Positions 9,214-58,889 of a stretch of DNA of 64,000 bases are shown here, piece after piece; position 1 is the first letter of the stretch, and each line of letters starts with the position of its first letter. Source of the stretch: Alphaproteobacteria bacterium (GTDB lineage Bacteria > Pseudomonadota > Alphaproteobacteria > Bin95); NCBI GenBank assembly GCA_963422665.1, contig OY730441.1:715411-779410 (forward strand), given 5' to 3'. The notes below the pieces were generated by a model that saw nothing but the letters and a program-made list of their open reading frames with translations, searched no databases and was not told the origin of the DNA. The position numbers and the translations under genes were made by a program.

Positions 9214-9735
9214 TCAGGCGGTGAGGCGGCCTACTATTTCTTCGATGGCGGCGTCCGCCAGCGCCTGGATTTCGGCGTCGGTGCGGTCCTGGATCGGGTG
9301 CGGGACGAAGATCATCGGCGGCTCGTAGCCGAGCGCCGCGGACTGCGCCCGCCACGCCTCCACGAACTCCGCGGTCGCCACGCCCACGCCGACGACGCCG
9401 CGCGCTTCGAGGTCTGCGATATCATGCGTACAGCACGATGTGCAGGAGCCTCAGTCGGCCAGCCCTTCGACGACGAGGGCGGCCTCGGAAGCGATCTGCT
9501 GCTTGACGGCAATCGGGGCCGTGCGGGCGAAGGTCGGCTTCATGTAGCGCCTCACTTCGATGCCCCGCTCGCCGAGGCGCAGATGCAGGCGGTCGAGAAA
9601 GACATCGCCGCGCGCCTTGGAAATGTCCAGCAGCGCCACGGTCTTGCCGTCCAGCGAGGCCGGGCGGGCCAGCGGCTCGCGCCGCGCCGGCTCGACTTCG
9701 CCGGTCGGATCGACCAGCACCGGTGTGTTCCTCAT
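9214..9735 (-). CDS. UGSC-family selenoprotein (in-frame TGA at 9451..9453 read as selenocysteine)
   Basis: The 94-aa ORF 9451..9735 ends ...VVEGLAD-TGA. The same frame continues GSCTSCCTHDIADLEARGVVGVG...IEEIVGRLTA to a stop at 9214..9216, with no other stop. The 522 nt are in frame. The motif reads U-G-S-C exactly. Confidence 0.65.
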
Positions 9736-11096
9736 GTGCCAACCTCCTTCGTTACGGGAATGCTGCCGACCGGGCCGGTGGCGGCCCAGCCGGGCAGAAT
9801 GGCGGAGAACATGCCCGCGCCGCCGCCGGCGCGCACGATCAACAGGCCGCCCTCGCGCAGCTTGGGCGCGCCGTGGTCCGGCTCGTCGAGCGCGGCGCGG
9901 AGCGCCGCCTCCAGGTCCTCGCGCGACCAGCCGGCGGCCCGGAAGACGCGGTCATGCTCCGGGGACACGACGACCACGGCGTCGATATGGCGCCGGTTCC
10001 GGTTCTCCAGGCCCCGGAACACATCGGCGAAGGTCTCCACCAGGGCGTCGGGCGTACGGGAGTCCTGGTCCACCACCCCCATCACGCCGTAGCCGGCAAA
10101 CAGCGTGACGGCCGAACGCCCCGCGCCCGCGCCCCGGCTTTCGGAGAGCGGCGGCCAGGCCGAACCCTCCTCGTCCTCGGCGAAGCAGAAGGTGTATTTG
10201 CCGGGATTGCCGAGCGCGGCCCGGTCCACGCCCTGCGGCTTGCCGCCGCCGACATTGCGCACCACCAGTTGCAGCGCCCGGCCGACGGTGGCGTTGGCGC
10301 GGTTGCCCTGCCCGAGCGCGTTGCCCTTCGCGTTCATGCCGATGGCGCGGCGCACCGGCCCGTTCACGATGACAATGGGGCCGATATAGTAGGTCGTCGC
10401 AAGCACGCCGTGCAGGCAGAAGCCGTCGTCCAGCGCCGCCTCGACCGCCGCCAGCACGACCGGCAGGTATTCCGGCTTGCAGCCGGCCATCACGGCGTTG
10501 ACCGCCACCTTCTCCACCGTGCAGGGCTGGAGGTTCGGCGGCGCGAGGCCCAGCACTTCGCCCGGATCGCGCACCGTGCCGTCGAGCATCGCGAGCACCC
10601 GCGCCTCTGTCGGCGGCGCCACCGGCAGCCCGTCCGACCAGCCGCGGTCGTAGGCGGCCTCGATCTCGTCCTCCAGCGGCGCCAGCGGCACGCGGCGGGA
10701 CTTGAGGCGCGTCGAGCCGAAGCGCGCGGCCAGCGCCTCCGGCATTCCCGGCTCCACATTCTTCGCCCCACAGCCGGGACGGAAGGGCGGCAGGCCGGCG
10801 CCGAGGCCGTCAAGACCCGTCAGGCGTTCCCACTCGGCGCGGTCCCAGCCCCAGGTTCGCCCGACCTCGTCGCCGTCCTCCCGCCGGATCAGGGTCGGCA
10901 CGATCTCCACGCCGAGGCGGAAGGACCGTTCGAGCCCCTCGTCGAGCGCGCCGGACACGCTTTCAGGGAAGGCGGGGTCGTCCTGCGTCCACACGTCGAG
11001 CGCAATCCCGGAGTCCGCCAGCGCGGCATAGACCGGCTCAAGCAGGGCGCAGGTCGGGCAGTCGCGCTTCACGACCAAGGTAAGCTGCATCGTCAT
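9732..11096 (-). CDS. thioredoxin-fold (CPTC) domain protein with a large uncharacterised C-terminal domain
   Basis: 454 aa. Its N-terminus is MTMQLTLVVKRDCPTCALLEPVYAAL. Its stop overlaps the start of the UGSC gene (ATGA overlap), so the two are probably co-transcribed. Confidence 0.5.
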   Translation of the reverse strand: MTMQLTLVVKRDCPTCALLEPVYAALADSGIALDVWTQDDPAFPESVSGALDEGLERSFRLGVEIVPTLIRREDGDEVGRTWGWDRAEWERLTGLDGLGAGLPPFRPGCGAKNVEPGMPEALAARFGSTRLKSRRVPLAPLEDEIEAAYDRGWSDGLPVAPPTEARVLAMLDGTVRDPGEVLGLAPPNLQPCTVEKVAVNAVMAGCKPEYLPVVLAAVEAALDDGFCLHGVLATTYYIGPIVIVNGPVRRAIGMNAKGNALGQGNRANATVGRALQLVVRNVGGGKPQGVDRAALGNPGKYTFCFAEDEEGSAWPPLSESRGAGAGRSAVTLFAGYGVMGVVDQDSRTPDALVETFADVFRGLENRNRRHIDAVVVVSPEHDRVFRAAGWSREDLEAALRAALDEPDHGAPKLREGGLLIVRAGGGAGMFSAILPGWAATGPVGSIPVTKEVGT

Positions 11097-33095: not shown

Positions 33096-33836
33096 ATGAC
33101 GGATAACGATACCGCAGAGACCGTTTCGGAAGTATTTGCGAACGTACCGACGCGTCGACGTCGTGGGCGTCCCCGTAAGGACTCCCGCAATATCGCCGCG
33201 AAGCCACCCGTGGGGTTTCCCGAGTTTCCGAACAAAGCGTTCGACATTATCTATGCCGACCCACCATGGGACTATAAAGGCCAACTTCAACATGCGGGAT
33301 CAGGAAGCGGTGATTCCGGGGGCGCCATTCGCCACTACTCCACAGTTACTCTGGACGACCTCAAGCAGCTTCCTGTCTGGAGCATCGCAGCAAAAGATTG
33401 CCTGCTCTTCATGTGGGCGACCAACCCGCATCTAGACCAGACCATCGACCTCGGAAAGGCGTGGGGCTTCGCTTGGGCCACAGTCGCCTTTGTATGGGAC
33501 AAACAAAAAGTCAACCCCGGCTTCTACACCCTCAGCCAGTGCGAGCTTTGCCTAGTGTTCAAGAGGGGAAAGATACCGAGGCCGAGAGGAGCCAGAAATA
33601 TTCGGCAACTCGTGAGCGCTAAGCGCGGACAGCACTCCGAAAAGCCATTCCAGGTTCGCGAGCGTATCGAGGAAATGTTTCCCTCTCAGTCGAAGATAGA
33701 ACTGTTTTCTCGTGAAGAGATAGACGGCTGGACAGCATGGGGGTTGGAAGCATATGGCTTGCGAACATTTAGAAAACAGAGAGAATTGGCAATTGAAGGC
33801 TTCGCGTCGTGCGGGGAGGGCAAAACATCATCTTGA
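33096..33836 (+). CDS. MT-A70 family DNA N6-adenine methyltransferase (orphan)
   Basis: It has the IIYADPPWDYK catalytic motif. Local GC is clearly lower (about 50%) than the window average. Confidence 0.8.
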   Translation: MTDNDTAETVSEVFANVPTRRRRGRPRKDSRNIAAKPPVGFPEFPNKAFDIIYADPPWDYKGQLQHAGSGSGDSGGAIRHYSTVTLDDLKQLPVWSIAAKDCLLFMWATNPHLDQTIDLGKAWGFAWATVAFVWDKQKVNPGFYTLSQCELCLVFKRGKIPRPRGARNIRQLVSAKRGQHSEKPFQVRERIEEMFPSQSKIELFSREEIDGWTAWGLEAYGLRTFRKQRELAIEGFASCGEGKTSS

Positions 33837-46709: not shown

Positions 46710-46922
46710 TCCTTGCCGCCCGGTCGAGAGGCAGGCCCTCCCTCGTCGCCTCGGACGCCCGCAGAGCCTGCCCCGGACCCGATCCGGGGCCTCATGCAAC
46801 AGGACTCCGATTCGCGAAGGCCCCGGATTCCCCGCTCGGAGGCGGGGACAGGCAAGGTCGGGACGAAGAATTGGGGGAGGCCCCGGATCGCGGCCTGTCC
46901 GGGGCGATGAGGGAGCGCGGCC

Positions 46923-47765
46923 TTGCCGGGCCGGCGGAAAAAGGCCAATTGGCCGCATCGCCGGGGAGCGCCGCCTTTGCCGTTTTCATCCGTCCGCCGC
47001 CGCCTGCTCGGGCTTGCCGCCGGCCTGGCGCTCGGCCCGGGCTTCGCCGCGCCCGGTTTCGGGGCGGACAGGATTACGGTTTTCGCCGCGGCCAGTTTGA
47101 AGAACGCGATGGACGAAATCTCCGCCGGCTTCGAGCGGGAGACGAGCCATGCCGTCGCCGTCTCGCTTGCCGGCTCGTCGGCGCTCGCCCGCCAGATCCG
47201 GCACGGCGCGCCGGCGGACATCTTCATTTCCGCCAATCCGGGCTGGATGGATTCGCTGGAGCGGGAGGGACTCATCGACCCGGCAAGCCGCTTCGACCTG
47301 CTGGGCAACGCCCTCGTGCTGGTCGCCCACGGCCGGGATGCGGCGAAGATGGAGATCGGACCGGGCCTGGACCTCGCCGTCATGCTGGGCGAAGGCCGCC
47401 TCGCCATGACGCTCGTGGATGCAGTGCCCGCCGGGATTTACGGCAAGGCGGCGCTCGAATCGCTGGGCGTCTGGGAGGCCATTGCGCCGAAGGCGGCTCA
47501 GGCGGACAATGTCCGCGCCGCGCTGTCGCTGGTCTCTTCCGGCGAGGCGCCGATGGGCATCGTCTATGCCACCGACGCCGCGGCCGACGACAACGTGACT
47601 GTCGTGGGCGCCTTCCCGGCGGATACCCACCCGCCTATCGTCTATCCCGCCGCCGCCATGGCCGCGAGCCGCAGCCCGCTCACGGCGCGCTTCCTCGCCT
47701 GGCTTCGCGGACCCGTCGCGCGAAAGGCATTCGAGCGGCAAGGCTTTACCGTCGCCTTCGAGTAG
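46923..47765 (+). CDS. modA: molybdate ABC transporter substrate-binding protein
   Basis: It has a signal peptide region (RRRLLGLAAGLALG) and a ModA fold. The true start may be a downstream TTG/GTG near 46975-46990. Confidence 0.82.
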   Translation: MPGRRKKANWPHRRGAPPLPFSSVRRRLLGLAAGLALGPGFAAPGFGADRITVFAAASLKNAMDEISAGFERETSHAVAVSLAGSSALARQIRHGAPADIFISANPGWMDSLEREGLIDPASRFDLLGNALVLVAHGRDAAKMEIGPGLDLAVMLGEGRLAMTLVDAVPAGIYGKAALESLGVWEAIAPKAAQADNVRAALSLVSSGEAPMGIVYATDAAADDNVTVVGAFPADTHPPIVYPAAAMAASRSPLTARFLAWLRGPVARKAFERQGFTVAFE

Positions 47766-47774
47766 AATTACGGC

Positions 47775-48467
47775 ATGGACTGGTTGAGCCCCGAGGAGTG
47801 GCAGGCGGTCGCGCTGTCCCTGCGCGTCGCATTCTGGGCAACGCTTGGGAGCCTGCCGCTCGGGGTGCTGACCGCCTATGCGCTTGCGCGCTGGCGCTTT
47901 CCCGGCCGGCAGCTCCTGAACGGGCTGGTGCATCTGCCGCTCATCCTGCCCCCGGTGGCGACTGGATACCTACTGCTGCTGGTATTCGGCGCGCGCGGGC
48001 CGCTCGGCAGCCTCTTGCAGGAGGTCGGCATCGTCTTCGCCTTCCGCTGGACAGGCGCGGCGCTGGCGGCGGCGGTCATGGCCTTTCCGCTGATGGTGCG
48101 CGCTATCCGGCTTTCCATCGAGGCGGTGGACCCGAGGCTCGAACAGGCGAGCGCCACGCTCGGCGCCGCCGGCCCCTGGGCCTTCGCGACCGTGACGCTG
48201 CCGCTCGTCCTGCCCGGCATCCTCGCGGGCGCGATCCTCGCCTTCGCCAAGGCGATGGGCGAGTTCGGCGCCACGATCACCTTCGTTTCCAATATCCCCG
48301 GCCAGACGCAGACCCTGCCGACGGCGATCTACGCCTTCCTCCAGGTGCCCGGCGGCGAGGCGTCGGCGCTCCGGCTGGTCGGAATCGCGGCCGCCGTGTC
48401 CATGGCGGCGCTGCTTCTCTCCGAGCTCGTTGCGCGGCGCGTGGCGAGAAGAGTGGCCGGCGCATGA
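47775..48467 (+). CDS. modB: molybdate ABC transporter permease
   Basis: 230 aa. It has the EAA loop (EAVDPRLEQASATLGA). Confidence 0.85.
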   Translation: MDWLSPEEWQAVALSLRVAFWATLGSLPLGVLTAYALARWRFPGRQLLNGLVHLPLILPPVATGYLLLLVFGARGPLGSLLQEVGIVFAFRWTGAALAAAVMAFPLMVRAIRLSIEAVDPRLEQASATLGAAGPWAFATVTLPLVLPGILAGAILAFAKAMGEFGATITFVSNIPGQTQTLPTAIYAFLQVPGGEASALRLVGIAAAVSMAALLLSELVARRVARRVAGA

Positions 48468-49549
48468 CGCTTTCCGTGACCCTGCGCCACGCTTTCCCCG
48501 ATTTCGATCTGGATATTTCCTTCGAGGCGCCGCCGGGCGTGACCGTGCTCTTCGGCCGCTCCGGCTCCGGCAAGACGACGACCGTCAACACCGTCGCGGG
48601 GCTGCTCCGGCCGGAGTCGGGGCGCGCGGTCGCAGACGGATGGGTGCTGTTCGACACGGAGCGCGGCGCGTGGCTGCCGCCGCATCGCCGCCGGCTCGGC
48701 TACATCTTCCAGGAGGGGCGGCTGTTCCCGCATCTCACCGTGCGCCAGAACCTGCTTTACGGCCGCTGGTTCGCACCGAAGGCCGGGCCGCGCGAGGATA
48801 TGGGGCGCATTGTCGAAATGCTCGGCATCGGGCATTTGCTGGGCCGCCGGCCCGGCGCGCTGTCGAGCGGGGAGAAGCAGCGGGTCGCGATCGGTCGCGC
48901 GCTGCTGGCGAGCCCCCGGCTCATTCTCGCCGACGAGCCGCTCGCCTCGCTGGACGAGGACAGGAAGGCGGAAATCCTGCCCTATTTCGAGCGCCTGCGG
49001 GACGAGGTGTCGGTACCCGTGCTCTATGTCAGCCACTCGGCGGCGGAGGTGGCGCGGCTTGCGACCACCGTCATCGCCTTGCAGGACGGAAAGGCGGTGC
49101 GCCAAGGGCCGGCGGTCGAGGTGCTGGGCGACCCCACGGTCACACCGGTGGGCGCGCGGGGCGCAGGCGCGGTGCTGGAGGCGGCGGTCGTCCGCCACCA
49201 TGCCGACGGGCTGTCGGAGATCGAGGCCGGCGGCGTCCGGCTGTTCCTGCCGAGGGCGCCGCATACGCCCGGCAGCCGCATCAGGGTCCGGATCGCGGCG
49301 CATGAGGTGCTGTTATCGCGAAAGCAGCCCGAAGGCCTGTCGGCGCTGAACATCCTGCCGGGCACGGTCGAATCGGTGCGGGCGGGCGACGGGCCGGGCG
49401 CCATCGTCTCGGTACGCACGGCCGCCGGTACGATCCTGTCCCGCTCGACCCGCCGTTCGACCGAGGCGCTGGGCCTGGCGGAAGGTGTGCGCTGCCACGC
49501 CGTCATCAAGACCGTCGCCATCGCCCCGGAAGGGGTGGGCGGTGCCTGA
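48464..49549 (+). CDS. modC: molybdate ABC transporter ATP-binding protein with C-terminal TOBE domain
   Basis: It has Walker A (GRSGSGKTT), the signature LSGGEKQRV and Walker B (ILADEPLASLD). Its ATG overlaps the modB stop. Confidence 0.85.
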   Translation: MTLSVTLRHAFPDFDLDISFEAPPGVTVLFGRSGSGKTTTVNTVAGLLRPESGRAVADGWVLFDTERGAWLPPHRRRLGYIFQEGRLFPHLTVRQNLLYGRWFAPKAGPREDMGRIVEMLGIGHLLGRRPGALSSGEKQRVAIGRALLASPRLILADEPLASLDEDRKAEILPYFERLRDEVSVPVLYVSHSAAEVARLATTVIALQDGKAVRQGPAVEVLGDPTVTPVGARGAGAVLEAAVVRHHADGLSEIEAGGVRLFLPRAPHTPGSRIRVRIAAHEVLLSRKQPEGLSALNILPGTVESVRAGDGPGAIVSVRTAAGTILSRSTRRSTEALGLAEGVRCHAVIKTVAIAPEGVGGA

Positions 49550-49578
49550 CTGAGATTGAGCCGCGCCGTTGCTGCGGG

Positions 49579-50727
49579 CTATCCGCTGCCATGCGAGGAG
49601 CCGGGCCGATGCCTGCGCCGGATATGGACGCGCATTCCTTCCGCCGCCAGGCCCGCGAGCAAGCCGGCCAGCGCGCCCAAGAATACCGTCGCGAGCGCGG
49701 CGGCGGCGATGACCGGCCGGCAGTCCGGGCGAGCGTCGAGCAGTCTCGGACTCAGGGTCAGGTCGGCCGCCGCATAGACCAGGAGCGCGCCGACGACGGC
49801 CGGCGGGATCGACATGAGCAGCCCGACAACCTCCGGCCCCGCCGCGGCGGCGGCGCAGCAGGAGGCCGCCATGATCAGCGGCGCCCCGATGCCGCGCGCG
49901 CCGAACCTTCGATGGGCGGCAATGCCGCCGGCCCCGTGGCACATCGGCATGGCGCCGAGCGGCGCCAGCAGGAGGTTCATCAGGCCGTTCGTGGCGGCGA
50001 GCCTTCGTTCGCTCACCCGTGCGGCCCGGTCGGGATAGAGCGCACGGGCGACCGCGGCGGCGACCACCACGGCGTTGAGCAGCGTCAGCGGCAATTGCGC
50101 AAGCACGCCTGAAAGCACGGCATGGACGGAGCCGATGCCTCCGGCGGGAGCCGCCGAAGGCATCGGCGGCCCTGCATGGGGAACCAGCAGCACGGCGCCG
50201 ACAACGACAAGCGGAACCCACGGCCCCCGCGGCAGAAGAAAGGCGAGCGAGAGTGTGGCGAGCGAAACCAGGGCCATGGTCCAGTCATGGCCCATCAGGC
50301 CGAAGGCCACCGTTCCGAGCATGAGGCCGAGCCCCGCCTGAAGACCCGTGACCACCGACTGGGGAATGGCGCGCGCCACCCGTTCGAACGACGGGACGGC
50401 TGCGAGCAGGAGGAGGACCGCTCCGACGATGCCGCCCGCCCAGGCGGTTTCGACGGCGGTGAGGCCGCCCGCAACGATCACGGCGCCGAGCGCCTTCATC
50501 GGCTGGACGGATACGGGTATCCGGTAGATGGCGGCGACGAGGACATACCCGGCCGCGAACCCGGCGAACACCGGCGTCGGCGCGAGAATGCCGGCGCCCA
50601 CCGCGGCCACGACATAAGGCAGGAAGGTGCCCAGATCGCCGAATGCGCCCGACAACTCCCCGCTTGCCGACCGCAGGCGCTCCAGGCGCCCGGCGTCTTG
50701 TCCTTCGAACCCGGGCATCTTCGGCAT
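49579..50727 (-). CDS. putative sulfate/molybdate transporter (MOT1-like permease)
   Basis: 382 aa, polytopic and alanine/glycine-rich. It is convergent with modC. Confidence 0.55.
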   Translation of the reverse strand: MPKMPGFEGQDAGRLERLRSASGELSGAFGDLGTFLPYVVAAVGAGILAPTPVFAGFAAGYVLVAAIYRIPVSVQPMKALGAVIVAGGLTAVETAWAGGIVGAVLLLLAAVPSFERVARAIPQSVVTGLQAGLGLMLGTVAFGLMGHDWTMALVSLATLSLAFLLPRGPWVPLVVVGAVLLVPHAGPPMPSAAPAGGIGSVHAVLSGVLAQLPLTLLNAVVVAAAVARALYPDRAARVSERRLAATNGLMNLLLAPLGAMPMCHGAGGIAAHRRFGARGIGAPLIMAASCCAAAAAGPEVVGLLMSIPPAVVGALLVYAAADLTLSPRLLDARPDCRPVIAAAALATVFLGALAGLLAGLAAEGMRVHIRRRHRPGSSHGSG

Positions 50728-50913
50728 CTTGTTGTTTTCGCGCCTGTCCGGCCTCGAAGCCTACAGGCCGGGACCGCCCTGCGAAAGGCCGGCCGGCCGA
50801 GCATCGCGGCGGCCATGATGTCCACAAGGGAAAGGCGCCGAAGTCGACTGCCTTTATTGTCGATTCAAGTCGTTTTTTGTGCTTTTCTTCCAGGTCGAGG
50901 GAGGAAATACAGG

Positions 50914-51621
50914 GTGGAAAGCTTCTGGCGGATACTCGGTGAGGCTGTGGGCCTGATCCTTGCTTGGGATTCCGACCTCATCGAAATCGTCGGCCTGTCG
51001 CTGCGGGTCACGCTTGCGGCCGTCGCCGTCTCCTGCGTCATCGGCCTGCCGCTCGGCGCGGCGGTAGGCGCGTTCCGGTTTCCCGGCCGGACGGCCGCGA
51101 TCGTCGTCCTCAACTCGCTGATGGGGCTGCCGCCCGTCGTGGTGGGGCTGATCGCCTATCTGATGCTGTCCGCTGCCGGGCCGCTCGGTCCGCTTCAGCT
51201 TCTCTACACCCCGGCGGCGATGATTATCGCGCAGACGATTCTCGTCACGCCGATCGTCGCGGCGCTGAGCCGGCAGGTCGTGGAGGACTGCTACCGCGAA
51301 TATGCCGAGCAGTTCGACTCGCTCGGCGTGGCCCCCCTCGACCGGGCGGCCGCGCTGTTGCGGGACGCGCGCTACAGCCTCCTCACCGTGGCGCTTGCCG
51401 GTTTCGGCCGCGCGGTGGCGGAGGTGGGCGCGGTCATCATCGTCGGCGGGAACATCAATCATGTGACCCGCGTGATGACCACGACGATTGCGCTGGAGAC
51501 CTCCAGGGGCAATCTGGAACTCGCGCTTGCGCTCGGCGTAGTGCTCCTCGCCATCGCCGTGGCCGTCAACGGGGCCGCCATGACGCTCCGGGCGTCGGCT
51601 GTGCGGATGGCCTATGCTTGA
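50914..51621 (+). CDS. tupB: ABC transporter permease, tungstate/molybdate TupB-like
   Basis: 235 aa. GTG start. BPD_transp_1-type permease. Confidence 0.7.
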   Translation: MESFWRILGEAVGLILAWDSDLIEIVGLSLRVTLAAVAVSCVIGLPLGAAVGAFRFPGRTAAIVVLNSLMGLPPVVVGLIAYLMLSAAGPLGPLQLLYTPAAMIIAQTILVTPIVAALSRQVVEDCYREYAEQFDSLGVAPLDRAAALLRDARYSLLTVALAGFGRAVAEVGAVIIVGGNINHVTRVMTTTIALETSRGNLELALALGVVLLAIAVAVNGAAMTLRASAVRMAYA

Positions 51622-52438
51622 GGCCGCGTTCGATAGGGCCGCGCCGACGCCGGCATTCGACAGGGCTGCGCCGGCGCCGGCATTGGGGGCGGAAGCGCCG
51701 CCCGAGGCGCTGCTCCGGGCGCGCGGCCTCTGCTTCGATGCCGGCGGCAAGCGGCTCATCGACGGGATCGATATCGATATCCGCCCCGGCAGGCGCACGG
51801 TGGTGATGGGAGCCAACGGCGCCGGCAAGAGCCTGCTGCTGCGCCTGCTCCACGGCCTGATCCGGCCGACAGCGGGCGAAGTGCTCTGGCAGGAGCGGCC
51901 GCTCAACCGCGAAGGCCGGCTCCGACAGGCGATGGTGTTCCAGCGCCCGGTGCTGCTGCGCCGTTCCGTGCGCGCCAATCTCCGCTTCGCGCTCGCGGTG
52001 CGCGGGCTCACGGGGCCGGAGCGCAGGGCAAGGGAAGCCGAAGCAATGGAACGCTCGCATCTCGGCGACCTGGCGAACCGGCCGGCGCGCGTCCTTTCCG
52101 GAGGCGAGCAGCAGCGCCTTGCGGTCGTACGCGCGCTGGCCTGTGCGCCGCGCCTGCTGTTCCTCGACGAACCGACGGCGAGCCTCGATCCGGGTTCGAC
52201 CCACGCCATCGAGCGGTTGGTGGCCGACGCGCATGAGAGCGGCGTCGCAATCGTGCTCGTCACGCATGACATCGGGCAGGCGCGGCGCCTCGGCGACGAC
52301 CTCGTCTTCCTGCATGGCGGACGGGTCGTGGAAGCCGGGCGCGCGCCGGACCTGCTCGATGCGCCCCGCTCCGAAGCGGCGCGCGCCTGGCTTCAGGGCC
52401 GCCTCTATCTCGACTCCCCGCCCGGGCCTGACGCCTGA
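51614..52438 (+). CDS. tupC: ABC transporter ATP-binding protein, TupC-like
   Basis: It has Walker A (GANGAGKS), LSGGEQQRL and LLFLDEPTASLD. The N-terminus carries a 27-bp tandem duplication (AFDRAAPxPA x2). Confidence 0.78.
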   Translation: MLEAAFDRAAPTPAFDRAAPAPALGAEAPPEALLRARGLCFDAGGKRLIDGIDIDIRPGRRTVVMGANGAGKSLLLRLLHGLIRPTAGEVLWQERPLNREGRLRQAMVFQRPVLLRRSVRANLRFALAVRGLTGPERRAREAEAMERSHLGDLANRPARVLSGGEQQRLAVVRALACAPRLLFLDEPTASLDPGSTHAIERLVADAHESGVAIVLVTHDIGQARRLGDDLVFLHGGRVVEAGRAPDLLDAPRSEAARAWLQGRLYLDSPPGPDA

Positions 52439-52458
52439 AGCGCAACGGCGGAAGCAGT

Positions 52459-53277
52459 ATGTTCCGGCCGATCGTCCTCGCGCTCGCGGCAGCCGGGTTC
52501 ATCGCGTCGGGGCCGGCGGCCGCCGCGGACAGCTTCATCGTCGTCCAGTCGACGACGTCGACGCGGAATTCGGGCCTCTACGACCACATCCTGCCGCTGT
52601 TCCGGGAAAGGACCGGTATCGAGGTGCGGGTCGTCGCAGTCGGCACCGGGCAGGCGATCAGGAATGCGGCCAATGGCGACGGCGACGTGCTGCTCGTCCA
52701 TGCGAAACCCTCCGAGGAAGCGTTCGTGGCGGCAGGCCACGGCATCGCGCGCTTCGACCTCATGCACAACGATTTCGTCATCGTCGGCCCGCCCGCCGAT
52801 CCTGCCGGCATCGCGGGGTCGGAAGATGCTGCGGCGGCGCTGGCCGGGATCGCAAGGGCCGAAGCCTCCTTCGCCTCGCGCGGCGATGACAGCGGCACGC
52901 ACAAGGCCGAACTCGCACTCTGGGCCGAGGCCGGGGTAGACGTGGCGGCAGCCTCGGGCGGCTGGTACCGCGAAACCGGTTCCGGCATGGGCGCCACGCT
53001 CAACATCGGCGCCGGCATGGGCGCCTATGTCCTGACCGACCGCGCCACCTGGACAGGCTTCGGCAACAAGAACGGCCACCGGATCCTCGTCGAGGGCGAC
53101 CCCAGGCTGTTCAACCAGTACGGCATCGTGCTGGTGAATCCGGAGAAACACCCGAATGTCAGGGCCGGTCCCGGCAGGCAATTCGTCGACTGGATGCTCT
53201 CCGAAGAGGGACAGGCGGCGATAGCTTCCTATCGTGTGGACGGCCAGCAGCTCTTCTTCCCCAACGCCGGAAACTGA
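52459..53277 (+). CDS. tupA: tungstate/molybdate ABC transporter substrate-binding protein, TupA-like
   Basis: It has a signal peptide and the TupA-type motif VVQSTTSTRNSGL. Confidence 0.72.
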   Translation: MFRPIVLALAAAGFIASGPAAAADSFIVVQSTTSTRNSGLYDHILPLFRERTGIEVRVVAVGTGQAIRNAANGDGDVLLVHAKPSEEAFVAAGHGIARFDLMHNDFVIVGPPADPAGIAGSEDAAAALAGIARAEASFASRGDDSGTHKAELALWAEAGVDVAAASGGWYRETGSGMGATLNIGAGMGAYVLTDRATWTGFGNKNGHRILVEGDPRLFNQYGIVLVNPEKHPNVRAGPGRQFVDWMLSEEGQAAIASYRVDGQQLFFPNAGN

Positions 53278-53306
53278 CGGGACGCAGGCCGGGCGCCGCC
53301 GGCATG

Positions 53307-54200
53307 TCAGGGCGATAGCCAGCGCACACGGCCGGTTTCGGAGAGGTCGTAGCCGCCCATTGCATCGGCCTTGCGCATCAGGGCGTCGCCGCGAGCGAAG
53401 GCCAGCAGCGTCTGCACCCGGTCGGTAAAGTATGCGCGCCGGTCGATCAGCAGATCGAACCGTTCCCGGACCAGAGGCAGGAACGGCAAATGAAACTGCC
53501 GGGCCATTGCTTCGATGCCCGGGGCCGCATCCGCATCTCCCGCAGCCACGGCGGCCGCTGCATCGCTCTCGGTTCGCGCCAGCTCCGCCGACGGGATCAG
53601 GTCCGCCGCCGCAAGCCCTTCCTTCGACAGAAGCTTCTCGAAGACCGCCGTAGCCCCGGCGCCCGGCTGCCGCATAGCGACCCGCCTGCCCCTGAGATCG
53701 GAAATGCAGCGAACCTCTTCGCACACGCGCTCGGACAGGACGAGGCCGCGAGCCCGCGCAGCCCAAGAGATCAACACCGAGCCCTGCACGCCTCTGCCGG
53801 CAACCGTCCGGACATTCCAGCCTCCCTCTTCCGGGATATGCAGCCCGGCAAGCGCGGCATGGCCGCCGGCGAAGGAGTCCAGTCCGTCGAGGCTCCCGTT
53901 CCAGAGCGTCGCCAGCCCCGAGCCGGACTCGCGCACCGCCCAGTCGAGAAGCGGGTCGTGGGAGCCGGCCAGCACCTCCGGCCGTTCGACGGGAGCCCGA
54001 CCGCCGCCGCCCTCTATCCACGCCAGTATTTCCGTGCGCGGGAAGAGCAGCTTCCCCGTGATCCGCCGGTGCGGAATCCCGCCGGCAGCAGCGAGGTCGT
54101 ACACCTTGCGCTCCCTTACGCGCAGAAGCGCCGCCGCCTCCTTCGTCGTAAGGTAGCGTGGCGGCGTCTCCGGATCGTCTTCGAGCGGTTCTTGCACCAT
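53307..54200 (-). CDS. transcriptional regulator: excisionase/MerR-like HTH fused to a periplasmic-binding-protein-like domain
   Basis: 297 aa (MVQEPLEDDPETPPRYLTTKEAAALLRVRERKVYDLAAAGGIPHRRITGKLLFPRTEILAWIE + PBP-like C-terminal domain). It is adjacent to tupBCA and modABC. Confidence 0.65.
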   Translation of the reverse strand: MVQEPLEDDPETPPRYLTTKEAAALLRVRERKVYDLAAAGGIPHRRITGKLLFPRTEILAWIEGGGGRAPVERPEVLAGSHDPLLDWAVRESGSGLATLWNGSLDGLDSFAGGHAALAGLHIPEEGGWNVRTVAGRGVQGSVLISWAARARGLVLSERVCEEVRCISDLRGRRVAMRQPGAGATAVFEKLLSKEGLAAADLIPSAELARTESDAAAAVAAGDADAAPGIEAMARQFHLPFLPLVRERFDLLIDRRAYFTDRVQTLLAFARGDALMRKADAMGGYDLSETGRVRWLSP

Positions 54201-54314
54201 GGCGCTTACGAATAACATGACCAGCAAGGGAATGCCTGGTTCGGGCGCGGTTGAGGACGGGCGGCAGCGGGGGCAGGATAGAGTCGCAACCGGAGAGGTC
54301 GACAGGCGGGGACG

Positions 54315-55115
54315 ATGAGACTGAAGGACAAGGTGGCGCTGGTGGTCGGCGCAGGACAACAGGCGGGCGACACCGTCGGCAACGGGCGCGTCGCGGCGAT
54401 CCTGCCCGCACGCGAAGGCGCAAGGGTCTTCGCCGTCGATAGCGACCTCGCCTCGGCCGAGGAGACCGCGGCAGCGATCCGCGCAGAGGGCGGCGACTGC
54501 CTTGCGGTGCGGGGCGATGTGACCAGCAACGAGGACTGCGCCGGTTTCGTCCGGGCCTGCACCGACCGGCGCGGGCGCATCGATATCCTGCACTACAATG
54601 CCGGCATCGCCGGAGACGGGCTGGACAGCGACCCGATGCAGCTCCCGGAAGAGGTCTGGGACCGGGTCATGGATGTCAACCTGAAGGGCCTCTACCGCAC
54701 ATCCCGGCTGGTCGTGCCGGTCATGCGCGAACAGCGGTCCGGGGCGATCATCGGGGTGTCGTCGATCTTTTCGATCTGCTCCGTGGACCGGGTGATCTAC
54801 AAGGCGTCGAAAGCCGGCATGAATGCCTTCTGCCACATGCTCGCCAGCACCAATTGGGACTATGGCATCCGCTGCAAAGTCATCATGCCGGGCCTGATGG
54901 ACACGCCGATCTCGATTGGCTACCGCATGCGCAGGGGAGGCGTGTCCGCGGAAGAGGTCCGGGCGGCCCGCAACGCCCAGGTTCCGCTGAACCGCAAGAT
55001 GGGAACGGGGTGGGACACGGCCCATGCCGCGTTGCTCCTCGCTTCCGACGAAGCCCGGTTCATCGCCGGCGTCAACCTGCCGGTCGATGGCGGCATGTCC
55101 GCGCGCATCGGCTGA
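54315..55115 (+). CDS. SDR family oxidoreductase
   Basis: It has VVGAGQQAG, NAG and YKASKAG motifs. Confidence 0.85.
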   Translation: MRLKDKVALVVGAGQQAGDTVGNGRVAAILPAREGARVFAVDSDLASAEETAAAIRAEGGDCLAVRGDVTSNEDCAGFVRACTDRRGRIDILHYNAGIAGDGLDSDPMQLPEEVWDRVMDVNLKGLYRTSRLVVPVMREQRSGAIIGVSSIFSICSVDRVIYKASKAGMNAFCHMLASTNWDYGIRCKVIMPGLMDTPISIGYRMRRGGVSAEEVRAARNAQVPLNRKMGTGWDTAHAALLLASDEARFIAGVNLPVDGGMSARIG

Positions 55116-55133
55116 GCGCGCCTTGCGAACGCC

Positions 55134-58100
55134 ATGACGGACCCGGGAACCGCGTACCGGATCGGCGTCGATGTCGGCGGCACGTTCACCGACTTCGTTC
55201 TGCGCGACGAGGCGTCGGGCCGGGTAGCGGTCCACAAGGTCCCCTCTACCCCCGCCGACCCGTCCGAAGCCGTCAGAAACGGCTTGCCGGCGGTGCTGGA
55301 AATGGCGGGAGCGGGCGCCGCCGGCATGGGGCAGCTTGTCCACGCAACGACGGTCGCGACCAACGCCATCATCCAGCGGCACGGCGCGAAGACCGCGCTG
55401 GTTACCACCCGCGGCTTTCGCGATGTGCTGCTTCTCGGCCGGCAGAAGCGCTACGAGACTTACGACCTCCATATGCGAAAGCCGGATCCCCTGATCCCGC
55501 GCGAGCAGATTTTCGAGGTGAGGGAGCGGGTCAGCTTCGAGGGCGAGGTGCTGGAGCCGCTGGACCCGGAGGACCTCGAAGCCGTCGTCGAGAGCATCGC
55601 CGAAGAGGGCTACGAGGCCGTCGCGGTCGCACTTCTCCACGCCTATGCAAACCCTGCGCATGAGCGGGCCGTCGGCGAGGCCCTGTGTCGGCGGATGCCG
55701 GGTGCGGCGCTCAGCCTCTCCGCCGATGTCTCGCCCAAACTGCGCGAATACGAACGCACCAACACCACGGTCGCCAACAGCTTCGTCAAGCCTCTGGTCG
55801 GCGCTTACGTGCGGCGTCTTGCTGAAGACTTCGCCGCCATCGGCTCGGACGCCGACCTCTCGATCATGCAATCGAACGGCGGGCTCGTCTCGCCGGCGCT
55901 GGCGGGCGAATACCCGGTGCGAATCGTCGAGAGCGGCCCCGCCGCCGGCGTGTTGCTCGCAGGCCAGATCGGCAGGGAACTCGGCGCCGACCGCATCCTC
56001 AGCTTCGACATGGGCGGCACCACGGCGAAACTGGGCGCCATCGACGGAGGCGAGCCGGTGATTGCGCCCGTCTTCGAGGTCGATCCGGTCAAATACAAGA
56101 AGGGGTCCGGCCTGCCGATCAACGTGCCATCGGTCGAACTGGTCGAGATCGGCGCGGGCGGCGGGTCCATCGCGCTGGCGGTGGACGGAGCGGTCCGTGT
56201 CGGGCCGGACAGCGCGGGCGCCGACCCCGGCCCTGCCTGCTACGGCGCAGGCGGCGTCCGGCCCACGGTGACGGATGCGAACCTGGTGCTCGGCTACCTC
56301 AACCCGGCCTATTTCAACGGCGGCGCCATGACCCTCGACGCCAATGCGGCCGCGGCGGCGCTCCGCGAGCATGTCGCCCGGCCCCTGGGGCTGTCCGTCG
56401 AGGAGGCCGCCTGGGGCATCCATCTGGTCGCCACCGGGAACATGGAGCATGCGTTGCGAGTCGTTTCCGTAGAGCGCGGCCGCGATCCGCGCAAATATGC
56501 GCTTGTGGCTTTCGGCGGCGCGGGACCGTTGCATGCAGCCAGGATTGCGCGCGCGCTCGGCGTTGGCCGGGTCGTGGTGCCGAGGGCGGCGGGCGTCGGC
56601 TCCGCCGTCGGTATGCTTGCCGCGGACAGCCGGCTGGACGCCTCCATGACCAGGCTGGTGCGTCTCGACGAGGCGGCGCCGAAAGACATCGCGACAATCT
56701 ATGCGGGGCTCGAGGCGCGGCTGGCGGAGGACCTCGGCCACCTCCCCGGCGCACGCGCTCCCGTCTTCCGGCGGTTCGCCTATATGCGCCATGCCGGGCA
56801 GGGTTTTGAAATCCATGTGGACCTTCCGGACGGCGAGATCGGCGCGGGTTTCCCGGCGGCGTGCGAGGCCGCATTCCGCACGGCCTACAAGGCCCGCTAC
56901 CGCACCGAGGACCCCGCCAGCGCGGTCGAAGGCGTGGATTGGGCGTTGGCGGCCATAGTTTCGAACTCTCGCGGCATATCCGCGGGCGAGGCGAAGGCGC
57001 CGCCAACCGGCGAGCCGCCCGGCTCCAGGCAGGCATGGTTTCCGGAAACGGGCGGCATGACCGAGACGGCGGTCTGGCGGCGCGAGGCCATCGAGCCCGG
57101 CGCCGTTATCGAGGGCCCTGCGATCGTCGAGGACGCCGAGGCGACAACCGTTGTCCTGCCCGGAGACCGCGCCAGGCCCGGGCCGAACGGGCACCTGCTG
57201 ATCGACATAGGGCAAACCGCAGCGCCCGCCGGACAAGACCCGGAAGACCCGGCGCGGTCCGCCGGCGCCGGCCCATGCAGCAGCGCTGGCAAGAGAGCGA
57301 GCGCGGCCGTCGATCCCGTTACCTTCACCGTGATCTGGAATTCGGTCATTTCCGTCGCCGAGGAACTGGGCACGACGATGCGCCACACGGCCTTCAGCGA
57401 AGCGGTGCGCGAGGGCGACGACTTCTCGACGGCGGTGTTCGACGCGAGGGGACGGATGATCGCCCAAGGCAGTTTCTCGCCGGGCCATCTGGGCTCCATG
57501 CCCTTCGTCGTCCGGCATGTGACCGAGGCATATCCACCCGCGGCGCTGAAGCCCGGCGACAGCATCCTGATGAACGACAGCTGGATGGGGTCCGGCCATT
57601 TCCCGGATTTCTTCCAGGTCATGCCGGTTTTCGAAGGAACCGATCTGCTCGGCTACGTCGCCGCGTCGGCGCATCAAATGGATGTAGGCGGCGCGGCGCC
57701 GGGCTCGCAGAAGGTCCACGGCGTGACAGAAGCGTTCCAGGAAGGCTTTCGTATCCTGCCGGTGCGCTTCTGCCGCGAGGGAGAGATCGACCGCGACATC
57801 CTCTCGATGGTGCTTGCCAACACCCGCGTGCCGGACAAGGTTCGCGGCGACGTAATGGCGCAGCACACGGCTAACCTCACCGCCGCCGAACGCTTTCGCC
57901 AGCTCTTCCGCGACCACGGCCGGGCCACGGTCGAGGAGGCTTTCGACCGCATACTCGACCGCAGCGAGGAGCGCATGCGAGCGGCGCTGGCGCGCGTGCC
58001 GCCCGGCACATACAGCTTCGACGACCGGATGGACGATTACGGCCCCGGCACGGAGCCGATCCATTTCGGTGTCGATATCGCCTTTGCCGAGGGGCCTGAC

Positions 58101-58889
58101 GGCGCGGAAGTGACTGTCGATTTCTCCCGCTCCTCGGACCAGGTACCCGCGGCGATCAACAGCTACATCAACTACACCCGCGCCTACGCATACTTCGCGA
58201 TCAAGGTGTTCTGCGACCCGCTCAGCCCGCAGAATGCAGGCGCGATGCGGCCGGTCCGGCTGGTGGCGCGGGAGGGCAGTTTCTTCAATCCCAGATTCCC
58301 CGCGGCTTCCGGCGGCCGGGCCGCATTGCAGGTCCGTATTTTCGACACCATCAACGGCGCGATGGCGCAGGCCGTGCCGGAGCGTGCGATGGGCGCCTTC
58401 AGCCACTGGTCGAACCCGAATATCGGCGGAATCGACGACCGTACCGGCAAGCCCTACGTCTTCTACGACCTGATTCTGGCGGGCTATGGCGGCCGGGCGG
58501 ACAGCGACGGACCGGAAGGGCTCAGTCCGGTAATGAACTGCTCCAACATCCCGGTCGAAGTCCACGAAACCAATTTGCCGGTTCTGATCCACCGGCTGGA
58601 GCTGCTTGACGGCACCGGCGGCGCCGGCAGGCACAAGGGCGGGTCCGGCCTGCGCAAGGATATCGAACTGCTGGCCGGCGAGGGTGTGCTCACCCTGCTC
58701 GGCGACCGCCACGAGAGCCGGCCTTACGGTGTCTTCGGCGGCGAACCCGGCGCTGTAGGGGAAACGGTGCTCAATCCGCACGGCAATGGCGAACGCCTCG
58801 GCTCGAAGGAGATTCGCACGCTCAAGCGCGGCGATGTGCTGAGCATTCGCACCAGCGGCGCCGGGGGCTACGGGAAGCCCGACGAATAG
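55134..58889 (+). CDS. fused hydantoinase/oxoprolinase family protein (HyuA-like N-terminal half + HyuB-like C-terminal half)
   Basis: 1251 aa. The N-terminus GVDVGGTFTDFVL is Hydantoinase_A-type. Confidence 0.85.
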   Translation: MTDPGTAYRIGVDVGGTFTDFVLRDEASGRVAVHKVPSTPADPSEAVRNGLPAVLEMAGAGAAGMGQLVHATTVATNAIIQRHGAKTALVTTRGFRDVLLLGRQKRYETYDLHMRKPDPLIPREQIFEVRERVSFEGEVLEPLDPEDLEAVVESIAEEGYEAVAVALLHAYANPAHERAVGEALCRRMPGAALSLSADVSPKLREYERTNTTVANSFVKPLVGAYVRRLAEDFAAIGSDADLSIMQSNGGLVSPALAGEYPVRIVESGPAAGVLLAGQIGRELGADRILSFDMGGTTAKLGAIDGGEPVIAPVFEVDPVKYKKGSGLPINVPSVELVEIGAGGGSIALAVDGAVRVGPDSAGADPGPACYGAGGVRPTVTDANLVLGYLNPAYFNGGAMTLDANAAAAALREHVARPLGLSVEEAAWGIHLVATGNMEHALRVVSVERGRDPRKYALVAFGGAGPLHAARIARALGVGRVVVPRAAGVGSAVGMLAADSRLDASMTRLVRLDEAAPKDIATIYAGLEARLAEDLGHLPGARAPVFRRFAYMRHAGQGFEIHVDLPDGEIGAGFPAACEAAFRTAYKARYRTEDPASAVEGVDWALAAIVSNSRGISAGEAKAPPTGEPPGSRQAWFPETGGMTETAVWRREAIEPGAVIEGPAIVEDAEATTVVLPGDRARPGPNGHLLIDIGQTAAPAGQDPEDPARSAGAGPCSSAGKRASAAVDPVTFTVIWNSVISVAEELGTTMRHTAFSEAVREGDDFSTAVFDARGRMIAQGSFSPGHLGSMPFVVRHVTEAYPPAALKPGDSILMNDSWMGSGHFPDFFQVMPVFEGTDLLGYVAASAHQMDVGGAAPGSQKVHGVTEAFQEGFRILPVRFCREGEIDRDILSMVLANTRVPDKVRGDVMAQHTANLTAAERFRQLFRDHGRATVEEAFDRILDRSEERMRAALARVPPGTYSFDDRMDDYGPGTEPIHFGVDIAFAEGPDGAEVTVDFSRSSDQVPAAINSYINYTRAYAYFAIKVFCDPLSPQNAGAMRPVRLVAREGSFFNPRFPAASGGRAALQVRIFDTINGAMAQAVPERAMGAFSHWSNPNIGGIDDRTGKPYVFYDLILAGYGGRADSDGPEGLSPVMNCSNIPVEVHETNLPVLIHRLELLDGTGGAGRHKGGSGLRKDIELLAGEGVLTLLGDRHESRPYGVFGGEPGAVGETVLNPHGNGERLGSKEIRTLKRGDVLSIRTSGAGGYGKPDE

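Follow-up and report, generated by a model that had tools for sequence, protein, structure and literature searches.

The UGSC family of selenoproteins was published in 2007-2008 (Zhang & Gladyshev 2007 NAR, PMC1976440; 2008 PLoS Genet, PMC2398784) and ranks with the most abundant selenoprotein families of prokaryotes in metagenomes from the ocean and from freshwater (PMC2398784, PMC9402790); in the Global Ocean Sampling (GOS) survey it was one of the major families, with 255 selenocysteine (Sec) and 21 cysteine (Cys) forms (PMC2398784). It has been viewed as a redox protein that functions by itself and has a 'likely Trx-like fold' (Trx, thioredoxin), and a fusion to a domain named 'Unknown_1' was noted in the 2008 paper (PMC2398784). 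Reviews of 2022 and 2026 still give its function as unknown. Here we describe a member of this family in a 64,000-nucleotide (nt) stretch of alphaproteobacterial DNA (contig OY730441.1 of assembly GCA_963422665.1; hereafter, the window), where positions 9214..9735 very probably constitute a UGSC-family selenoprotein gene with UGA recoded to Sec. The gene passes the family cutoffs, carries the U-G-S-C motif and differs in nothing at the family level, the family having both Sec and Cys forms in aquatic and soil Proteobacteria; it is one more member of a catalogued family and no surprise to a selenoprotein specialist. To the published description our analysis adds a predicted Rossmann/flavodoxin-like fold, an obligate operon partner and comparative evidence for a selenocysteine insertion sequence (SECIS).

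Three other described systems offer points of comparison. In Escherichia coli fdhF, the SECIS recognised by SelB has its apical hairpin 11 nt past the UGA and carries G23 and U24 in the loop. The grd operons of anaerobes contain trxA and trxB, and Neisseria PilB, a Trx-MsrA-MsrB protein, is an enzyme with a fused recycling thioredoxin domain.

The UGSC frame lies on the minus strand of the window, where it starts with the ATG at 9735..9733, runs through 93 further codons to a TGA at 9453..9451, continues into GSCTSCCTHDIADLE for 78 codons in all, and ends with the stop TGA at 9216..9214. The initial annotation had claimed a read-through of the TGA at 9451..9453 into an exact U-G-S-C signature, followed by 78 more open codons up to a stop at 9214; the window indeed reads D-U-G-S-C-T-S-C at this place, and the minus-strand translation bears out the length of the frame. 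The features of the gene and of its upstream neighbour are as follows:

9214..9735, minus strand: complete UGSC-family selenoprotein gene, 173 amino acids (aa) with Sec as residue 95, plus stop (from the translation, the hidden Markov model (HMM) scores and a frame kept in 76 orthologs)
9451..9453, minus strand: in-frame UGA read as selenocysteine (TGA in 76 of 76 unique orthologs, Cys at this column in remoter homologs)
9433..9453, minus strand: U-G-S-C-T-S-C motif (UxxCxxC), the presumed redox-active site (from residue conservation and the AlphaFold model)
9732..11096, minus strand: partner gene, 454 aa, a thioredoxin domain plus an uncharacterised C-terminal domain, upstream of UGSC in all loci

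When Cys was substituted for the UGA, the read-through product scored 132.9 bits against the NCBIfam equivalog NF041046 'UGSC family (seleno)protein' (cutoff 125) and 129.9 bits against Pfam PF24696 (cutoff 25). The NF041046 match covered profile positions 1-146 of 147 and protein residues 29-171, that is, both sides of the TGA, so the read-through frame is more than a product of chance. A search of 5.8 billion proteins with UGSC returned 703 matches. In the sample that we aligned, the nearest entries, of ~95 aa, stop at '...LAD', exactly at the UGA, and the remoter full-length proteins read DCGSCTSC; the comparison with Cys-form members that the initial annotation had proposed therefore places Cys at the Sec column. 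Two other aligned homologs have W at this column, which would be consistent with a variant genetic code that translates TGA as Trp. As had also been anticipated, automated calling of open reading frames (ORFs) truncates the gene: the ORF listing cuts it at the internal TGA into 9451..9735 (94 aa) and a separate 57-aa ORF at 9214..9387, and the public gene call on ENA metagenome contig ERZ21742408 ctg6182l (1.77 Mb), identical in this region, likewise gives 94 aa plus 57 aa. When the whole window was scanned for TGA codons lying between two coding-like stretches, three sites came up, including that of UGSC; the other two proved to be merely neighbouring genes in the same frame.

Further support for recoding came from other genomes. 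We searched 185,579 species genomes in one scan with the partner as query and recovered 80 loci from Alpha-, Beta- and Gammaproteobacteria and from Anaerolineae/Caldilineaceae, one of them from a cultured strain, Quisquiliibacterium transsilvanicum DSM 29781 (L081). In 79 of them the next gene after the partner is UGSC with its in-frame TGA; the one remaining contig breaks off within the gene. An Actinomycetota example of the Sec form (L087, GCA_041164245.1) was found from the UGSC side. Across the codon alignment of 76 unique orthologous genes, the Sec column is TGA in all 76, never TAA or TAG, and the 78 codons downstream are conserved, which excludes a sequencing error, a recent nonsense mutation or two independent genes. 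The initial annotation had allowed that the two halves might normally be separate genes; every one of these 76 orthologs keeps a single frame across the TGA. TGA is the commonest stop among the coding-like ORFs of the window, most of which it ends, and a reassignment of UGA in the genetic code is thus ruled out.

Immediately 3' of the UGA, where the initial annotation had suggested looking for a SECIS, we found a stem-loop with G23 and U24 in its apical loop (numbering from the U of the UGA as nt 1):

9409..9452, minus strand: SECIS-like stem-loop including the lower and middle helices (minimum free energy -18.8 kcal/mol, z = -3.07; pairing across 70 sequences)
9421..9439, minus strand: apical SECIS hairpin, a 7-bp stem of nt 15-21/27-33 and loop UGUAC with G23 and U24 (under synonymous constraint)

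Below the apical stem, whose loop is U22-G23-U24-A25-C26, nucleotides 9-12 pair with 37-40 and 2-5 with 42-45. The decisive evidence for a SECIS is comparative. In the 76-gene alignment, codons +5 to +8 after the UGA show zero synonymous variation (Ser TCG 73/73, Cys TGC 76/76, Cys TGT 68/68, Thr ACG 58/58), whereas four- to six-fold degenerate codons elsewhere in the gene have a codon entropy of 1-2 bits, compared with 0 here; the His codon after the UGA is CAT in 69 of the 76 genes. G23 and U24 are invariant across 71 aligned sequences, and codon +7 is always NGT (TGT in 60, AGT in 10). Over 70 distinct sequences, standard pairs fill 91.9% of the cells of the structure; in controls with shifted 3' partners the figure is 27-50%. 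The pair 15-33, which joins two third-codon positions, is G-C in 31 sequences and A-U in 14 (Fisher p = 2e-6, not corrected for phylogeny). As a control we used six Cys-form genes encoding the same peptide, CGSCTSCSTHD: all these codons vary among them (TCT/TCG/TCC; TGC/TGT; TCC/TCG/AGC; ACG/ACC/ACA; CAT/CAC) and none has G23U24. The hairpin, built from the codons for the C-T-S-C-C-T-H-D part of the active-site motif, is thus under selection at the RNA level. It resembles the fdhF SECIS in being a stem-loop just 3' of the UGA within the coding sequence, in its 11-nt spacing and in having G23 and U24 in the loop; it differs in its continuous 7-bp stem, which includes a G-U pair and lacks the bulged U17, and in its loop of 5 nt (3 nt in some clades) instead of 4. 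The claim that this is a UGSC selenoprotein gene, made initially from the reading frame, accordingly finds support in the family HMMs, the invariant TGA and the constrained SECIS-like hairpin.

Several observations nevertheless weigh against Sec decoding at this locus. The 46-nt element by itself is significantly stable (3 of 200 shuffles equally so), but the 72-nt fold after the UGA is no better than shuffles (z -0.77), so that thermodynamics alone is weak evidence in a sequence of 68% GC. When the apical stem is forced onto the Cys-form genes it reaches -3.9 to -9.0 kcal/mol, compared with -7.8 in the window; hairpin stability does not discriminate Sec from Cys genes, because the peptide motif itself encodes partial complementarity. 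Six of the apical pairs are near-invariant and true compensatory changes are consequently few, and a search of the whole window with Rfam at the gathering threshold matched neither a SECIS nor any other RNA family. As for the decoding machinery, ARAGORN found no tRNA, hence no tRNA-Sec, within the 64 kb; no SelA, SelB or SelD Pfam family occurred among the called genes of window positions 1-38,930 and 46,905-58,467 or among the ORFs of the remaining window gaps, and tblastn with bona fide SelA and SelB queries gave nothing in the window.

Indirect support for Sec decoding comes from sel genes that adjoin orthologous modules elsewhere. In the actinomycetotal locus L087 (1392..6560), the gene order is selA (TIGR00474, 390 bits), selB (TIGR00475, 292 bits), tRNA-SeC with anticodon TCA, partner and UGSC. 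In an Acetobacteraceae metagenome-assembled genome (L042; 2823..4976, minus strand), a full-length selB stands just downstream of UGSC (TIGR00475, 385 bits against a cutoff of 242). At the place matching this selB, locus L041 has a selB-like stretch split over three frames (7206..8024, minus strand), the result of either an assembly error or decay.

The partner and UGSC form an obligate, translationally coupled two-gene module. UGSC stands immediately downstream of the partner in all 80 loci found with the partner as bait, and a partner homolog (48-53% identity where measured) stands directly upstream in all seven loci recovered with UGSC as the starting point, of which six hold a Cys form and one, actinobacterial, a Sec form; in total, the partner precedes UGSC in 87 of 87 loci, be it in Sec or Cys form. 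The initial annotation had pointed to an overlapping upstream gene at 9732..11096 starting with a thioredoxin-like CPTC motif, and both points held: the start of UGSC overlaps the partner stop by 4 nt, as ATGA, and C13 and C16 of the motif are invariant. Such an NTGA overlap is present in 74 of 79 loci, and in 73 of these 74 an AAGGAG(G/A) motif lies at most 20 nt upstream of the UGSC start, within conserved T-K-E-V codons. The corresponding element in the window is:

9743..9749, minus strand: Shine-Dalgarno sequence AAGGAGG for UGSC, inside the last codons of the partner (T-K-E-V)

The near-invariant T-K-E-V of the partner C-terminus is encoded in the window by ACG AAG GAG GTT (9736..9749, minus strand), which holds this Shine-Dalgarno sequence; the apparent protein conservation may partly reflect selection at the RNA level. 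Clustering of the flanking ORFs of 80 loci revealed no third conserved gene, the large neighbour 'families' that it produced being antisense shadow ORFs of the partner and UGSC. Since the linkage is strict and no third gene is conserved, the module is a self-contained two-gene cassette. One locus (L049; 1970..3608, minus strand) carries, on the opposite strand, a second and divergent pair, made of a stand-alone C-domain 37% identical to that of the partner and a UGSC paralog 30% identical, again with an in-frame TGA (GLGD-U-GSCSSCSLHD).

The partner ORF at 9732..11096 begins with MTMQLTLVVKRDCPTC and can be divided as follows:

10797..11096, minus strand: N-terminal thioredoxin-fold domain of the partner, about residues 1-100
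11049..11060, minus strand: CPTC (CxxC) motif of the thioredoxin domain, with C13 and C16 invariant in 36 aligned homologs
9735..10790, minus strand: C-terminal domain of the partner, residues 103-454, without match in fold or family

More than 8000 homologs of the partner were found, most of the best 120 at 60-65% identity. The protein belongs to no Pfam or NCBIfam family, its source labels being 'thioredoxin' or 'thioredoxin family protein'. Its N-terminal domain has a thioredoxin fold with the CxxC at the start of helix 1; it falls below the Pfam gathering score (Thioredoxin_2, 18.5 bits against 27), the best thioredoxin of the Protein Data Bank (PDB) has E = 0.005 by profile, and the domain is a divergent thioredoxin-fold module and not a canonical thioredoxin. 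The start assigned to the L087 partner by the gene caller is too late, which removes its CETC motif; the CxxC is present once the start is corrected. Invariant features of the partner are CPTC, RPGCG (C109), MAGC (C206), HGVLATT (H229), C304-x-x-E-D-E-E and AGGGAGMFS, and the MAGC and C304 motifs are kept even in distant relatives.

A search with the C-domain alone gave 5199 clusters at 50% identity. They include several architectures, namely Trx plus C-domain, AhpC/Redoxin plus C-domain (P0245, P0325), stand-alone proteins of ~350 aa, and tandem C-C proteins of about 710-740 aa (P0260, P0283, P0284) without a thioredoxin or UGSC domain. In one protein (P0375), a UGSC-like domain devoid of all its cysteines is naturally fused to the C-domain; this protein probably corresponds to the 'UGSC/Unknown_1 fusion' of PMC2398784.

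Within UGSC itself, G96, S97, C98, T99, S100, C101, H104 and D105 are invariant in the full-length homologs. We modelled the fold on a natural Cys-form homolog (P0003, 55% identical) instead of the window protein. The AlphaFold model (predicted local distance difference test, pLDDT, 89) places the UGSC motif where strand 3 passes into helix 3, and the predicted fold is a five-fold repeated beta-alpha arrangement of Rossmann/flavodoxin-like type, not a thioredoxin-like one: neither the thioredoxin topology (beta-alpha-beta-alpha-beta-beta-alpha) nor structural similarity to thioredoxins was seen in the model. A Pfam scan of UGSC at E<=10 matched PF24696 only, and its profile matched nothing among PDB sequences.

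These characteristics recall two of the systems introduced above. The GrdA/GrdB and PrdB reductases of anaerobes are similar in concept, by analogy and not by membership, since they draw on thioredoxin and pair a selenoprotein having Sec next to Cys with a larger protein that binds the substrate. The likeness here consists of the thioredoxin domain fused to the partner and of the carboxylate transporters and GntR/FCD regulators beside Cys-form modules. The module differs from the Grd and Prd systems in the lack of detectable sequence similarity and of evidence for a pyruvoyl subunit, and in its mostly aerobic proteobacterial hosts; the glycine/proline reductase selenoprotein B family (PF07355, GRDB) was not matched by UGSC in the Pfam scan at E<=10. 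A UxxC motif is listed for PrdB (PMC2398784). The partner, for its part, shares with Neisseria PilB an N-terminal CxxC thioredoxin-fold domain fused to a Cys-dependent catalytic domain, an architecture that suggests, by analogy, intramolecular re-reduction. It differs from PilB in that its C-domain matches no family or fold and a separate UGSC subunit, as selenoprotein or Cys form, is always present.

A candidate mechanism can be drawn from these comparisons. SelB bound to Sec-tRNA(Sec) would bind the apical hairpin together with the ribosome at the UGA and insert Sec at residue 95. The UGSC protein may then dock on the C-domain of the partner, as suggested by the Rosetta-stone fusion and by a conserved, low-confidence N-terminal UGSC peptide, and electrons could pass from the fused thioredoxin CxxC to the C-domain cysteines and from there to, or back from, the site formed by U95 and C98, possibly with C101. 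The module might thereby act as a thioredoxin-driven seleno-reductase, possibly on a small carboxylate. Judging from the sequences, we regard a complex with such a redox relay and such an activity, possibly with a carboxylate substrate, as evenly balanced between right and wrong. We hold somewhat more tentatively its more specific version, a widespread and so far overlooked two-subunit enzyme in which a Trx-fused catalytic domain, representing a new fold family of more than 5000 clusters, would work with a Rossmann-like selenoprotein bearing a Sec-x-x-Cys-x-x-Cys relay site, possibly on an imported carboxylate.

A weak hint at a carboxylate substrate is given by the neighbours of Cys-form modules, in a clade that includes L085, L088, L089, L090 and L091: orthologous GntR/FCD regulators flank the pair in four of six loci, carboxylate transporters of TctC, CitMHS/Na_sulph_symp or SDF type do so in five of six, and a canonical-TrxB-like gene adjoins the GntR gene in two closely related loci (L089 and L091). 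Other points count against the proposed function: these GntR, carboxylate-transporter and TrxB neighbours do not recur beside Sec-form modules, the C-domain has no recognisable relative in Pfam, even at E<=10, or in PDB by sequence or fold, and the case for complex, relay and substrate consists of co-occurrence, one fusion and conserved cysteines. The 325-aa Pyr_redox_2 gene of the window was considered as a dedicated UGSC reductase and rejected, since it adjoins UGSC in one close lineage only, is convergent with it, and is of another type than the TrxB found beside two Cys-form modules.

The principal functional rival is that U95, C98, C101 and H104 form a binding site for a metal ion or an iron-sulfur-type cluster and do not cycle as a selenenyl-sulfide, with the partner as a maturation or delivery factor and not a redox-relay enzyme; we consider this unlikely. 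A second alternative, which we judge clearly less probable, is that the linkage is mere conserved synteny and that UGSC is a free-standing antioxidant-type oxidoreductase reduced by the general thioredoxin system. In its favour, the published picture is that of a redox protein functioning by itself, with a 'likely Trx-like fold' (PMC2398784). Against it, the two genes stay together in all 87 loci, which come from several phyla and whose flanks vary, with no other gene conserved beside the pair; both the 4-nt overlap and the Shine-Dalgarno sequence inside the partner are conserved, the divergent paralogous pair of L049 is linked as well, a natural fusion exists (P0375), and the predicted UGSC fold is not thioredoxin-like. 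Least probable, and very much so, is that the TGA is a real stop, either between two small genes (94 aa and 57 aa) or as a nonsense mutation or sequencing error: the ORF listing and the public gene call do give two ORFs, genes of this genome usually end in TGA and no Sec machinery was seen in the 64-kb window, but in 76 of 76 independent assemblies the column is TGA (never TAA or TAG) with the downstream frame and protein conserved, full-length homologs have Cys there and one HMM match runs across the two halves. Moreover, the start codon of the 57-aa 'gene' would be a GTG within a conserved domain, with no Shine-Dalgarno sequence to serve it, and synonymous-site constraint sets in exactly downstream of the TGA.

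Beyond the module, the end of its transcript has one candidate:

9162..9181, minus strand: GC-rich 8-bp hairpin without a U-run, 33 nt past the UGSC stop (fold z only -1.13)

A scan for consensus terminators found none, and the hairpin is a possible, unproven transcript end. Between the UGSC stop and the 325-aa Pyr_redox_2 gene (2937..3911, plus strand) stands a 1373-aa restriction/methylase-like gene of the Eco57I family (PF07669; 4969..9090, minus strand), together with small ORFs at ~3.9-4.9 kb. In close relatives (L004-L009 and L011) the Pyr_redox gene ends right at the UGSC stop, and the ~5-kb Eco57I-like block therefore looks like a strain-specific insertion of a defence gene. Between the partner and the Eco57I-like gene, the coordinates of locus L001 and of the window agree exactly. 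At the Pyr_redox gene they differ by 54 nt, the gene lying at 2937..3911 and not at the 2883..3860 predicted from L001, which implies either that the mapping slipped or that there is a small indel at ~3.8-4.4 kb. Farther away, the window encodes an MT-A70 methyltransferase (33096..33836, plus strand) and a type IV restriction-like protein of the GmrSD family (PF03235/PF07510; 34964..36676, plus strand); the region thus holds several DNA-modification or defence genes.

For genome annotation, this locus is a textbook example of a selenoprotein gene broken in two by gene callers, and the remedy already exists in the NCBI NF041046 model. For the family, four additions result from our analysis: the obligate pairing of UGSC with a large partner family that lacks annotation, a predicted fold that is not that of thioredoxin, an fdhF-like SECIS made from the codons of the active site, and the finding that some lineages have sel genes next to the module. 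Q. transsilvanicum DSM 29781 can now be named as a cultured carrier of UGSC, besides the published Hyphomonas neptunium. Together, the additions make the 'function unknown' of an abundant environmental selenoprotein more tractable. If the proposed function is true, the module would be a thioredoxin-driven seleno-reductase of a new class, carried by aerobic Proteobacteria, Chloroflexota and Actinomycetota.

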